From positions 1 to 59,509 of IMG/VR virus record IMGVR_UViG_3300017781_000007: DNA of 59,509 bases; one strand, given 5' to 3'. The position numbers and the translations under genes were made by a program. Under the pieces are notes generated by a model that was not told where the DNA came from, ran no database searches, and worked only from the letters and a program-made list of their open reading frames with translations. The stretch's first letter is position 1; the number at the start of each line of letters is the position of its first letter. Source of the DNA: a virus. Its lineage: Duplodnaviria; Caudoviricetes. Shown here piece after piece: positions 1 through 26,506 of this stretch.

Positions 1-198
1 AAATCTTTGTAATACATTTAATTTTTCTTCAGCTTGTGCAATTTTATCTATTTGTTTGTCTACTTCATCAATATGTTGCGGATGTTCACCAATTCCGACT
101 GATTTACTCAGGTATATAGTTATTGTTGCATGAGCTTCTGATACTTGAGCATTATACTTATCTTCTAATGCTTTTATTATTAGATTTCTAAACTCCAC
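1..198 (-). CDS. Small conserved phage protein, partial (runs off window start)
   Basis: Hand translation from GTG at 198: MEFRNLIIKALEDKYNAQ...SVGIGEHPQHIDEVDKQI...; overlaps the stop of the upstream gene; no stop before position 1. Confidence 0.65.
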   Translation of the reverse strand, partial: MEFRNLIIKALEDKYNAQVSEAHATITIYLSKSVGIGEHPQHIDEVDKQIDKIAQAEEKLNVLQRF

Positions 199-994
199 AA
201 AGGCCTTCGCATTCTTGATTGAAGAGATCTGGCCCGTCATCATTTTTAAATTTAACTTCGTCTAAAGGTACACACTGTCTATGTACAAAATTTTTTACTT
301 TAGGATTATGCATACGCATCTTTTTATCAAATTCTACAGCAGATGCAAATTCTTTCGGTCTGTTATTTCTCATATCTATCCAAAAGTTGTCATCATGAAA
401 AGGACAGCCAATACACGCAGACTTAACTGGTATTTTAAATCCTTTACCTTCATACCATTTTAAACAATCTGTTCTTGACATCTTCTTATCAATTAATGGC
501 CATACATTTTTTTGCCACCAAAATCTAGATGGTTTCATACGCATGATTTCATCAGTTGATATACCAACCCAAACTTCTATGTGTTCAGTTTTTGGAAATC
601 TCTGTCTTGGTTTAAGTCCACATAGTTCTCTAATCTTTTTTGCAATTGGAGTTATCTTGTATTCTCTCGTGCATTGTCTACGACCCATACCTTTTTTACC
701 TTGATCATTTAAAGTATAAAACGGTGCGGAAGCAAATTGGTTACCGCCTGGTGCGAGAGCCGTGAGGATGTCATCTTGAATATTACCTTTCTTAACAATG
801 TGTACAGGGTAACTTAGAACGCTTCTAAGGTACTCAAGGTGTTTTATTACTGGTTCAGGTTCCCAACCCGTATCAGCAAATACAGCTGCATCAGGTTTTA
901 CACCAAACTCTCCAGCATCTGCCATCAAGGCCATTGTAGAGCTCTGTACGCCCGCTCCAAGGCTAAGAATTCTTAGTCTAGGTTCTTTTTCCAT
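188..994 (-). CDS. PAPS reductase-like / PP-loop adenine-nucleotide alpha-hydrolase family protein
   Basis: LSLGAGVQSS PP-loop variant, FADTGWE, RQCTREYKI, KSACIGCPF, C-terminal CEGLCGV; GGAG RBS before ATG at 994 (start trimmed from 1039). Confidence 0.75.
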   Translation of the reverse strand: MEKEPRLRILSLGAGVQSSTMALMADAGEFGVKPDAAVFADTGWEPEPVIKHLEYLRSVLSYPVHIVKKGNIQDDILTALAPGGNQFASAPFYTLNDQGKKGMGRRQCTREYKITPIAKKIRELCGLKPRQRFPKTEHIEVWVGISTDEIMRMKPSRFWWQKNVWPLIDKKMSRTDCLKWYEGKGFKIPVKSACIGCPFHDDNFWIDMRNNRPKEFASAVEFDKKMRMHNPKVKNFVHRQCVPLDEVKFKNDDGPDLFNQECEGLCGV

Positions 995-1187
995 AACGTC
1001 TCCTTCCGAATAAAGTTCTCCAGCACCAGCTTCTGCCAATACTTATTACTGTAAATATAACAGCTATATGAAAACTCTCCCACACTGTTGGATACATACC
1101 AAAATATGGAAAGATCCAAAGCTGTATCAATGTTGATAGAATCAAACCGCTGCCAACATCTATACAAGTTTCAAATAAATTTCTCAT
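978..1187 (-). CDS. Small two-TM membrane protein
   Basis: 69 aa, two hydrophobic stretches, coupled to both neighbours. Confidence 0.6.
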   Translation of the reverse strand: MRNLFETCIDVGSGLILSTLIQLWIFPYFGMYPTVWESFHIAVIFTVISIGRSWCWRTLFGRRRYGKRT

Positions 1188-2185
1188 GCTAATACTTTCA
1201 TTATTGATCTTCCAATTTCTTCTGCGATTTTCGGGACGATAGCATTCCCCAATCCTCTAAGTCTGTGTGCCCTGCCGGGTACCCCATTAACCACTCTACC
1301 CACATTGGGTTCAGAGAGCCAATTTGCCTCCCGCAATGTCCAGCTACTACTTCCTCTAGATTTGATTTGTTCCTGTTCGCTAGTTTCTCCCGGTTGTTCT
1401 CTGTAATATTTGGAAATACTTTGTTCGCTCTTGGTGTTGGCCACATTAGATGCGGATTCGCTACTTGATCGTTCAAACTTATTGGCATTTTCTTTTTTAA
1501 TTTCATCTTCATTCTTTTCTCTGACGCTGGACCTCTCATGCAATTTGCGTCTGGTGTTCTCCATAATCTCATTGTCTCTGGATCTACCTGCTCTCTCAGG
1601 TTTGAAGGTCGTGTCCTCCCTTTCCTCTGTCCTGTCATTAATTTTATTGTCCCCTCTTTTGATCTCGGAGGTAAGTGATCCATTGTGTTTGGAGTAGCCC
1701 ACAACCCAGAATCGCTCTCTTTTGTGCGGAGCACCGACGCCTGCAGCTGGAATAATAAACGTTTGGATTTCGAAGCCTTCACTTTCCAAGTCAGAGCATA
1801 CTGTTTCGAATACCATGCCGTCTTGGATGTTAATAATACCTCTGACATTTTCTGCAATAACGAAGGTGGGTTGGACTTCTTTAATGACTCTAAACATTTC
1901 AGGCCAGAGATATCTATCGTCTGCTGTGCCTTTTTGTTTTCCTGCAACGCTGTATGGCTGGCACGGGAACCCACCTGTGAGTATATCAACTCTTCCATAG
2001 GTTTCTTTAATCTCTTTCCCTTTACACTCTTTAATGTCATTGTATATCTTAACCCCTTTCCAATGTTTTTGCAGCAACATTCTGCAGTAATCTTCTTTCT
2101 CACAGAAGGCTATTGTATTAAAGCCAACCTTTTCTAATCCAATACTGAACCCACCAATACCACTAAATAAATCAAGATGGTTCAT
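1184..2185 (-). CDS. dcm: DNA (cytosine-5)-methyltransferase, alpha-like chain
   Basis: Motif I DLFSGIGG, IV GGFPCQ, VI ENV, VIII PHKRER, X RLRGLGNAIVP; no motif IX in this frame. Confidence 0.92.
   Translation of the reverse strand: MNHLDLFSGIGGFSIGLEKVGFNTIAFCEKEDYCRMLLQKHWKGVKIYNDIKECKGKEIKETYGRVDILTGGFPCQPYSVAGKQKGTADDRYLWPEMFRVIKEVQPTFVIAENVRGIINIQDGMVFETVCSDLESEGFEIQTFIIPAAGVGAPHKRERFWVVGYSKHNGSLTSEIKRGDNKINDRTEEREDTTFKPERAGRSRDNEIMENTRRKLHERSSVREKNEDEIKKENANKFERSSSESASNVANTKSEQSISKYYREQPGETSEQEQIKSRGSSSWTLREANWLSEPNVGRVVNGVPGRAHRLRGLGNAIVPKIAEEIGRSIMKVLA
1201..2103 (-). CDS. Nested alternative-frame ORF, putative methyltransferase beta chain (motif IX plus WxTP repeats); true start uncertain
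   Basis: 300-codon open frame inside dcm; three W-x-T-P...L-x-[ED]-[QV]-V repeats; LNPMWVEWLMGYPAGHT resembles motif IX. Confidence 0.65.
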   Translation of the reverse strand: MRKKITAECCCKNIGKGLRYTMTLKSVKGKRLKKPMEELIYSQVGSRASHTALQENKKAQQTIDISGLKCLESLKKSNPPSLLQKMSEVLLTSKTAWYSKQYALTWKVKASKSKRLLFQLQASVLRTKESDSGLWATPNTMDHLPPRSKEGTIKLMTGQRKGRTRPSNLREQVDPETMRLWRTPDANCMRGPASEKRMKMKLKKKMPISLNDQVANPHLMWPTPRANKVFPNITENNREKLANRNKSNLEEVVAGHCGRQIGSLNPMWVEWLMGYPAGHTDLEDWGMLSSRKSQKKLEDQ

Positions 2186-25642: not shown

Positions 25643-26506
25643 TTAACTGCTTGACCAATTACCTGCTGCAACTAAATCTAAAACTTCAGATAAAGTCCAT
25701 ACTCCAGAAGCTCCAGCAAATCCACCTGGTTCTTTGAATACTGCATATCCACCTTGGCCTGAATAAGATCCTGACCTTACAGGTCCGTGGCTTCCTCCGC
25801 CACCGCCTTGGTTGTTACCACCCGCTGCAGTTGAGCCTCCTCCAGGAGTTGGGGGACCTGATCCTCTTCCGCCTGCTCCTCCAGAAGCATAGTGTGTTTG
25901 TGATGGTGAATCTGTTGGACTCGCTATATCAAATTGTTTTCCTTGGCCTCCTGTGTTTCTAGGAGAGGCTGTACCGCCTGATCCGCCTCCTCCAGCTCCG
26001 GGGTCTCCACCCGATCCGCCTGGATTTCCGTGTCCTGTAAAAGGACCACTTGGACTTTGTTGACCTGGACCTGGAGATCCTGGACCTCCTGCGTGTCCTG
26101 CTCCTCCGCCCGATCCTCCAGCGCCGCCACCAGAGTTTCCTCCGTGTCCCGCACCGAAACCACCGCCAAGTGCAGTGTGTCCATCAAATGTAGATTGTCC
26201 TCCAGCTGAACCTGGAAAGTTTTGTGGGCCGCCACCGCCGCCTCCGCCACCGCCTCCAATTGAAACTGGATAAGGTGATCCATTAAGTGGGTGCTCAGGA
26301 GAGTGCAATAAGCCTCCCGCTCCGCCTCCACCACCTCGGTTTGGGCCTGCTCCACCGCCACCGCCAATTAATAAAACTTCGGCAGTTGCTGCAGATGGGT
26401 TAAAAGTACCTGATGAAGTAAAAGTTGTAATTTGTTCTGCTGATACTTGTGGATCGTTGTTTGGACCAATGACACCACCATTATTAAAATATTGTCTATT
26501 TGGCAT
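25643..26506 (-). CDS. Glycine-rich tail fibre / receptor-binding protein
   Basis: TFTSSGTF, GGGGAGG repeats, Pro-rich, SGVWTL C-terminus. Confidence 0.65.
   Translation of the reverse strand: MPNRQYFNNGGVIGPNNDPQVSAEQITTFTSSGTFNPSAATAEVLLIGGGGGAGPNRGGGGGAGGLLHSPEHPLNGSPYPVSIGGGGGGGGGGPQNFPGSAGGQSTFDGHTALGGGFGAGHGGNSGGGAGGSGGGAGHAGGPGSPGPGQQSPSGPFTGHGNPGGSGGDPGAGGGGSGGTASPRNTGGQGKQFDIASPTDSPSQTHYASGGAGGRGSGPPTPGGGSTAAGGNNQGGGGGSHGPVRSGSYSGQGGYAVFKEPGGFAGASGVWTLSEVLDLVAAGNWSSS

Follow-up and report, generated by a model that had tools for sequence, protein, structure and literature searches.

Tandem cassettes in a subunit gene nested within a phage C5 cytosine methyltransferase as candidate target-recognition units

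We analyzed the methyltransferase locus of a marine tailed virus (Duplodnaviria; Caudoviricetes) represented by IMG/VR virus record IMGVR_UViG_3300017781_000007. The window is the whole stretch of 59,509 nucleotides of this record, and all positions refer to it. The locus holds two overlapping genes on the minus strand (Table 1). The longer one, here called alpha, encodes the catalytic chain of a C5 cytosine methyltransferase. The other, beta, is nested within it and carries three short tandem modules (A, B and C) followed by a stretch resembling methyltransferase motif IX. The modules are candidate target-recognition domains (TRDs). Alpha matches Pfam PF00145 over residues 1-329 (E 2.5e-53) and TIGR00675 (E 9e-47), and its profile positions 2-161 match residues 13-171 of M.HhaI (E 2.5e-34). 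Motifs I, IV, VI, VIII and X, by which C5 methyltransferases are recognized, are all present in this chain. Enzymes of this class also carry a TRD and motif IX between motifs VIII and X of the same chain; there alpha has an unconserved spacer, and the IX-like stretch and words resembling the TL motif of TRDs occupy the +1 frame. Bases 1258-1312 are doubly read, as the conserved block ahead of motif X in alpha (EPNVGRVVNGVPGRAH) and as the motif IX-like stretch in beta.

Table 1. The two overlapping genes of the methyltransferase locus and their parts, with positions in the window
Feature	Position	Strand	Description
Alpha gene	1184..2185	-	333 aa, C5 cytosine methyltransferase catalytic subunit
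Alpha motif I, FSGIGG	2167-2150	-	Word location
Purine run AAAGGGG	2053..2059	-	12 nt before beta ATG, within alpha codons W-K-G; possible ribosome-binding site
Beta gene	1201..2040	-	279 aa, +1 frame of alpha; ATG 2040-2038, stop 1203-1201
Beta N-domain, residues 1-113	1702..2040	-	Contains SGLKCLE and LTWK; same bases as alpha motifs IV-VIII
Alpha motif IV, GFPCQ	1972-1958	-	Word location
Alpha motif VI, ENV	1852-1844	-	Word location
Alpha motif VIII, PHKRER	1729-1712	-	Word location
Module A, 46 aa	1564..1701	-	WATPNTMDH...NLREQVDPETMRL; beta frame
Alpha linker, residues 165-288	1322..1693	-	About 125 residues, charged, low-complexity; module DNA in the other frame
Module B, 40 aa	1444..1563	-	WRTPDANC...SLNDQVANPHLM; beta frame
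Module C, 43 aa	1315..1443	-	WPTPRANKV...NLEEVVAGHCGRQIGS; beta frame; unit ended at 1345 in a sequence-only reading of this DNA
Motif IX-like stretch	1258..1314	-	LNPMWVEWLMGYPAGHTDL; directly after module C, in beta
Alpha C-terminal block (pre-X stretch and motif X)	1232..1312	-	EPNVGRVVNGVPGRAHRLRGLGNAIVP; reads EPNVGRV...GLGNAIVP
Alpha motif X, GNAIVP	1249-1232	-	Word location

The frame of beta is open for 300 codons (open reading frame (ORF) 1201..2103) and ends with the IX-like stretch. Beta lies wholly inside alpha (2185-1184) in another frame, the arrangement that characterizes enzymes of the M.EcoHK31I type. An ATG is found at the position of the beta start in 49 of 54 anchored loci of relatives; a purine word lies 5-20 nt ahead of it in 44 of these 49, and GGAG or GAGG in 30, counts made without a chance control. 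The best match of beta is 80% identical, and the top hits begin MILRNYKAK..., aligned to MTLKSVKGK... at the ATG at 2040. In database searches, beta matches phrog_1008 (E 4.7e-24) and, at E<=1e-3, 1836 proteins; among cluster representatives it has 7613 relatives, of which 121 reach E<=1e-30. Searches of the nested frame against Pfam and NCBIfam returned no family, and the ESM Atlas returned unnamed viral clusters only. The majority of the 264 proteins collected are without motif I, IV or X.

The N-domain of beta is kept in relatives, with G46, C49, L62, W85 and K88 as invariant columns of alignment A2, and is missing from relatives in which all motifs lie in a single chain. We infer by analogy that it serves in docking to alpha. 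At the other end of the protein, LNPMWVEWLMGYP matches motif IX by pattern and by its place before motif X in one-frame relatives; no profile tool called the stretch motif IX. It lies 40-55 residues ahead of motif X in relatives with one frame, and in P0144, P0177, P0180 and others beta with its IX-like stretch and then the pre-X/X block follow consecutively in one frame. Beta extends beyond the alpha stop in five related loci, where it carries a further domain. These approximately 150 extra residues (L046, L051, L058, L060 and L066) contain the words KKTTIDHWLR..YPT..W, and a piece of the KKTTIDHWLR type is also found as an internal 'module' of 108-146 residues in L040, L042 and L073.

The two frames bear distinct marks of selection. 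In a stop test, one protein was kept while its synonymous codons were redrawn in 5000 trials, using either the codon usage of the window or permutation within the gene. With the beta protein kept, alpha was stop-free in 0 of 5000 trials, with on average 23.6 stops under window codon usage and 9.1 under within-gene permutation. With the alpha protein kept, beta was likewise stop-free in 0 of 5000, and the third frame holds 34 stops. For the module stretch alone, the alpha linker was stop-free in 0/5000 and 1/5000 resamplings. Among relatives, nucleotide differences within module types A, B and C concentrate at the third beta codon position; at positions 1, 2 and 3 they numbered 14484, 10030 and 32745 in module A and 3168, 1309 and 6335 in module B. 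Identity within module types A, B and C was 0.81, 0.80 and 0.88 in the beta frame, against 0.50, 0.52 and 0.65 in the alpha frame and 0.52, 0.57 and 0.67 in the unused frame. Since the beta frame is conserved and the alpha frame is no better conserved than the unused one, beta is the selected protein across the modules and alpha is simply open there. Over the bases shared by the N-domain and alpha motifs IV-VIII, conservation favors alpha (0.92 vs 0.85 for beta), and the wobble-site divergence of alpha is 0.14 per site vs 0.33 in the alpha-only 5′ part, as measured on just four equal-length sequences. As judged from the sequences, beta is a real protein, encoded by a second gene nested in alpha, and both frames are held open by selection, the module stretch of alpha being an open spacer free of sequence constraint. 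The sequence-only reading had already pointed to a nested frame, which is thus real; it did not state that this frame makes up a subunit of its own, translated separately as in enzymes of the M.EcoHK31I type.

The three modules begin with the minus-strand words W-A-T-P, W-R-T-P and W-P-T-P at 1701, 1563 and 1443 in the frame of ORF 1201..2103, and their LREQV, LNDQV and LEEVV tails end at 1585, 1462 and 1345, with a unit spacing of 46 and 40 residues. Three W.TP words within the 279 residues of beta occurred in 0 of 200,000 composition-preserving shuffles, and the full six-frame translation of the window (119,014 residues) contains five such words, three of which are those of beta. The net charges of modules A, B and C are +4, +6 and +3. 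The translation and the shuffles thus bear out the three W-x-T-P...LxxxV units of the sequence-only reading with their positions and spacings, the charges agree with the basic cores it had assigned to them, and its placement of the units before motif IX holds as well, the stretch at 1314-1258 being IX-like. No tandem repeat was found among the modules at the DNA level; only the 12-nt codon word for W-x-T-P recurs (1432-1443 and 1552-1563). The WPTP of the last module lies 43 residues ahead of the IX-like stretch. At the other end of the array, RFWVVGY of motif VIII in alpha and WATPNTMD in beta are read off identical bases.

The modules of related betas differ in number, kind and order. Cutting at [WYF..]x[TS]P words divided 72 distinct betas into 255 pieces, which single linkage at 45% identity, an arbitrary threshold, grouped into 40 module types; cluster C lumps the RANK-type module of the window with a SAAM-type module. 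Module numbers were counted in 70 betas, comprising those of the viral loci and of the window: eight have two modules, 32 have three, 20 have four, four have five, four have six, and one each has seven and eight. These 70 betas display 41 module arrangements. Differences are seen even between close relatives. L008 (A-B-C) and L025 (A-B) have backbones that are 98.5% identical over the 136 residues compared, and module C is missing from betas with backbones 96-98% identical. At backbone identities of at least 95% over 136 residues, L051 (A-D-I) differs from L058 (A-Q-D-I), and L020 (A-B-K) from L023 (A-B-G-F). Both orders are seen for five pairs of types, and in four betas one type is duplicated in tandem. 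A single module precedes motif IX in the beta of a Microbacterium phage.

Some positional preferences are evident in these arrays. Type A stands first in 67 of the 72 distinct betas. Type B, present in 38 betas, is second in 28 and last in seven. Types E, K, L and M are found only or mostly last, where they end in GG[SKQ] ahead of LNP, and types C, F and I are found both last and internally. The leading residue of the modules is lineage-specific (L005-L084): one lineage has W in all of them and another has Y or F, with module A alone keeping W there. This hints at a concerted change, or at exchange that takes place mostly inside lineages. The comparison shows that related phages gain and lose modules, duplicate them and change their order, which amounts to cassette turnover. 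The sequence-only reading had proposed comparing module number and identity among related phages, and had named modules that are invariant and do not contact DNA as a point against its interpretation. The number ranges from two to eight and the kinds differ, including at 96-98% backbone identity. As to invariance, it is type A that is near-invariant.

The nested plan is widespread. We scanned 80 related viral-contig loci with motif word patterns, and a second set of 80 whose contigs partly overlap with the first. The IX-like word is present in 75 of the 80 loci of the first set. Motif IV was found as well in 69 of them, and relative to it the IX-like word was in the +1 frame every time, motifs IV and X sharing one frame. 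The alpha-frame ORF that runs across the IX site contains motif X in 71 of 75 loci. Motifs I, IV and X were found together in 60 of 75, the rest being mostly cut by contig ends or missed by the word patterns. In the second set the nested plan was observed in 57 of 58 loci, the exception (L162) being explained by a single indel ahead of motif IX. The same plan is found in Lacticaseibacillus phage R23.9, Microbacterium phage vB_MoxS-R1, phages C72C1 and C75C1, Paenibacillus phage Rani, and one plasmid each of Paenibacillus polymyxa and Citrobacter freundii. Most genome records annotate alpha alone.

Other arrangements also occur. Motifs I, IV, VIII, the IX-like stretch and X lie in one chain in 53 of 111 proteins examined. 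For metagenome proteins in which alpha is fused to beta (P0052 and others), the nearest viral contigs show the ordinary nested plan, these being the same 57 of 58 loci. Metagenome proteins that switch between the alpha and beta frames, in either direction, are P0038, P0048, P0052, P0057, P0060, P0066, P0205 and P0361, together with P0110, P0126 and P0170; they may be errors, decayed genes or working fusions.

C5 methyltransferases have their TRD slot in the interval from motif VIII to motif IX. In the one-chain relatives this interval consists of modules and spacer and nothing else, and hidden Markov models (HMMs) of the module types matched there (n=53) as follows: F 18, E 11, C 7, D 2, J 2, B 1 and L 1. 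The modules thus occupy the TRD position, just before the IX-like stretch in the window and between VIII and IX in single-chain relatives, as the sequence-only reading had supposed. The module starts, [W/Y/F]-x-T-P-x-[A/T/S], are similar to the TL motif, which the available text of PMC2413257 gives as the TRD consensus ...P(STCA)PT(ILV)(TASV)..., located 10-50 residues before motif IX. According to the same text, this motif touches DNA in M.HhaI and M.HaeIII, and it was the criterion by which Trautner's group defined TRDs in multispecific enzymes. The spacing reported there is NNN x10 TL x3 CCC, which would place the upstream contact triplet of one module within the conserved L..QV tail of the previous one. 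By this analogy, the working unit may straddle the module boundaries drawn in the sequence-only reading.

Two known systems resemble the locus in different respects. M.EcoHK31I of E. coli (YGGCCR), compared here by its published description, likewise has a beta gene nested out of frame. In the available text of PMC2836561 and PMC3404938, M.EcoHK31I consists of alpha and beta, both of which are needed, with beta wholly within alpha in another frame. Alpha is described there as carrying motifs I-VIII, X and a predicted TRD, and beta as carrying motif IX. N-terminal deletions of beta weaken its association with alpha (PMC2836561, as far as its available text goes). No tandem modules are reported in the accessible parts of the two papers (PMC2836561, PMC3404938), whereas the beta of the window has three.

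The other system is that of the Bacillus subtilis phages SPR, phi3T, rho11 and SPbeta, whose C5 methyltransferases carry tandem TRDs. These enzymes are phage-borne and orphan, and have tandem short units before motif IX with a TL-type word each, as is the case here, where the words are TL-like. Contiguous short units between motifs VIII and IX, a feature of the multispecific type, number three in the window and two to eight in relatives. The SPbeta enzyme displays the words SPTLT and AFTVNT and LSPLECWRLQAF as its motif IX. In contrast to the locus described here, the Bacillus phage enzymes are one polypeptide with no nested gene, and no long second open frame is listed in the SPbeta gene. Their words read T-[ILV], whereas the modules found here read T-P and number up to eight. 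The IX-to-X profile gave a weak alignment, over motif X only (E 0.017).

A division after motif VIII, as seen here, is shared with split enzymes of the M.AquI type (M.AquI being divided at that point according to the available text of PMC3404938) and with the two-gene methylases of mycobacteriophages. Mycobacteriophage Obama12 (L088) has two annotated genes, gp80 and gp79, of which gp79 comprises three [L/F]PTP modules, an IX-like stretch and motif X; this second gene lies in the +1 frame and begins 23 nt ahead of the stop of the first. The genes of Obama12 thus follow one another and overlap only briefly, and motif X is encoded along with the modules, whereas in the window beta is nested and X stays in alpha. 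The N-terminal part of alpha matches 503 Mycobacterium phage records. In Paenibacillus larvae phage Rani (gp50/gp51), gp51 bears the label 'g50 Internal gene'; its frame is +1, and GGGAGG stands upstream of it. This distant relative has an N-domain, three modules of other types and LNPDWVECLMGFPIGWT; a sequence like gp51 is found in 72 phage records, 54 of them from Paenibacillus. The modules of gp51 are not discussed in the available text of PMC6070908. Meanwhile, single-chain metagenomic relatives (P0353, P0373, P0376 and others) have the same module types F, E, C, A and B, an IX-like stretch and a pre-X block. They differ in keeping one frame throughout, in having no beta N-domain and in placing module A mostly between IX and X. 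The nested alpha/beta plan, which is sporadically annotated, and the tandem TRDs of Bacillus phages are known already. We found no account of tandem TL-like cassettes in a nested subunit, nor any describing how such cassettes are shuffled or how widespread the family is, in a search that did not extend to subscription papers or REBASE.

Based on these findings, we propose a model in which two chains make up one enzyme. Alpha (333 aa) would supply motifs I-VIII and X, joined by an unconstrained spacer. Beta (279 aa), translated from its own ATG at 2040, would supply the docking N-domain, cassettes A-B-C and the motif IX-like stretch, and the two chains would assemble through the N-domain of beta, following the precedent of M.EcoHK31I. 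The TL literature and the slot suggest that each cassette, with its TL-like [W/Y]-x-T-P start and type-specific basic core, would form with motif IX a small domain reading the major groove. Cassette changes must leave both frames open, which the spacer of alpha would permit, and several cassettes would confer several targets by analogy with the enzymes of Bacillus phages. Through its cassette content, the enzyme would thus most likely shift the sequences it methylates and probably add to them.

We give a probability of roughly 0.55 to the reading that the tandem cassettes are TRDs whose content gives the enzyme more than one target. The modular part of the multi-specificity interpretation offered by the sequence-only reading stands, as the units are cassette-like, vary in number, kind and order, and lie in the TRD slot; its multispecific part is plausible by comparison with the Bacillus phage enzymes, and the evasion of several host restriction systems that it also proposed is a conjecture. 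Several results weigh against this reading. Direct hhalign comparison among the modules of the window is weak (A-C 14%, B-C 8%, A-B 3%). Intermediate types link A and C (A-G 90%, C-D 93%, D-G 91%, C-G 74%), with B the least connected, so the kinship of A, B and C rests on their common end words and on the intermediate types of relatives. The TL-like word keeps P-T but then has P where the TL consensus has I, L or V. No similarity was found between the modules and the variable region of the SPbeta enzyme: module HMMs and the beta profile run against this enzyme gave a best E of 0.057, on irrelevant stretches, and hhalign a probability of 0.05%. M.EcoHK31I has its TRD placed in alpha in the accessible parts of PMC2836561 and PMC3404938, whereas here the TL-like modules are in beta and, across the stretch where that precedent would have the TRD, the alpha frame is conserved no better than the unused one. 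In six of the eight one-chain relatives that have type A, it comes after IX and before X, and module B is also near-constant within the clade of the window. Being near-invariant and found after IX in those six, module A is a poor fit to a swappable TRD, and it may be a structural or general DNA-binding element rather than a recognition unit.

Structure prediction gave no fold for the modules either. AlphaFold2 on beta alone (alignment A2, 40 rows) was unusable, with a mean predicted local distance difference test (pLDDT) score of 46 and a predicted template modeling (pTM) score of 0.21. For the single-chain relative P0353 (alignment A3, 64 rows), pLDDT was mostly 82-96 in the core, 70-85 in motif IX and 73-88 in motif X, and only 29-44 in the module stretch (198-368). 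VIA-align matched this model to M.HhaI by the core alone (Z 22, root-mean-square deviation 2.8-2.9, 220-224 residues), and the beta profile had 0 matches among PDB sequences at E<=10.

The closest competitor is an enzyme of one specificity, in which recognition falls solely to the module adjoining motif IX and the upstream ones (A, B and others) serve as scaffolds or as non-specific DNA-binding arms, or are decayed 'pseudo' domains, so that module number tunes affinity or reach and not the choice of target. The distance between TL motif and motif IX in characterized enzymes (PMC2413257, in its available text) is one that only the last module fits. Some types (E, K, L, M and I) are found only or mostly last, with their GG[SKQ] ends joined to LNP; A and B are near-constant in the clade of the window, the modules are basic, and they are unstructured in AlphaFold2. 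Decay is contradicted by the internal types, which are under purifying selection like the last one. A reserved last place is at odds with C, F and I, which occur both last and internally, and with B, which is last in seven betas. Moreover, TRDs distant from motif IX are active in the multispecific enzymes of Bacillus phages. A single specificity seems to us doubtful, well short of even odds, and we prefer the reading of the cassettes as TRDs for several targets.

Two further explanations concern how, or whether, the nested frame is translated. Two programmed frameshifts, from alpha into the +1 frame of the modules and back by -1 before motif X, would give one polypeptide with the modules as an ordinary TRD region. 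The order I-VIII, modules, IX, X of the 53 one-chain relatives is what such a product would show, and in Obama12 the part with the modules, IX and X does open in the +1 frame, 23 nt ahead of where the I-VIII part stops. We nevertheless hold frameshifting to be very unlikely: the alpha frame is open through the entire module stretch in nearly all relatives, which would then be needless, and approximately 110 beta codons are conserved upstream of the modules, along with the ATG and its purine run. Further, because WATP and RFWVVGY are read from the same bases, one chain could not hold both; no slippery heptamer was seen at either junction, as inspected by eye only; and the precedent of M.EcoHK31I is one of two separate chains. 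That the nested frame is not translated at all, its openness and motifs being a by-product of alpha or of DNA constraints, would agree with its lack of a Pfam or NCBIfam family and with the annotation of alpha alone in most records. Yet module differences pile up at the third codon positions of beta while the alpha frame fares no better than an unused one, the same module types occur in-frame within one-chain methyltransferases, and beta runs past the alpha stop in some relatives, which leaves this explanation with next to no credit. A broken gene, or one gene read through two compensating frameshifts, was also considered and rejected, given that both frames are open in nearly all relatives and that beta has its upstream part, ATG and purine run.

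CheckV estimates the virus record to be 99% complete, and it contains one C5 methyltransferase gene. This gene lies within a replication block formed by a phosphoadenosine phosphosulfate (PAPS)-reductase-like gene, a small ORF, the methyltransferase, a UvrD-type helicase and an AEP primase. The remaining genome is of the tailed-phage type, with a family-A polymerase, terminase, portal, head protein and several auxiliary genes. The PAPS-reductase-like gene (188-1039, minus strand) is just downstream of the methyltransferase and matches Pfam PF01507 with E 0.002, under the curated cut-off. In phage C72C1, a gene for 'phosphoadenosine phosphosulfate reductase' likewise follows soon after the nested methyltransferase. 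The stop of the helicase overlaps the alpha start codon (ATGA, 2182-2185), which suggests coupled translation of both genes. A second same-strand nested ORF of 147 aa (25924-26367, minus strand), without a PHROG match, is found inside a gene of 287 aa (25643-26506, minus strand; phrog_2295).

These findings bear on how phages diversify DNA recognition. Multispecific methyltransferases are a textbook case of modular DNA recognition that, to our knowledge, is known only from a few Bacillus phages. If each cassette reads a target, the principle would extend to thousands of phage genes from marine, gut, soil and dairy settings. We tentatively suggest, at well below even odds, that multispecificity is a built-in property of this very large family of phage C5 methyltransferases, most of which lacks annotation: up to eight TL-type cassettes of dozens of types would be used in a nested small subunit, and the phages would retarget or widen self-methylation by cassette turnover. 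Such turnover would be workable because the other frame across the cassettes is an open spacer. Should this be so, the published placement of the TRD in alpha of M.EcoHK31I-type enzymes would fail for the present family. The locus is also an unusually clear case of overlapping genes, with approximately 840 bases in two frames and the burden of selection shifting from alpha at the catalytic motifs to beta at the modules. As beta is overlooked by standard annotation in most records, databases would not show the part of these enzymes that bears specificity. If the multispecific interpretation is true, these phages would offer a natural collection of short recognition modules, and pairing natural variants with methylomes could reveal what each of them reads.

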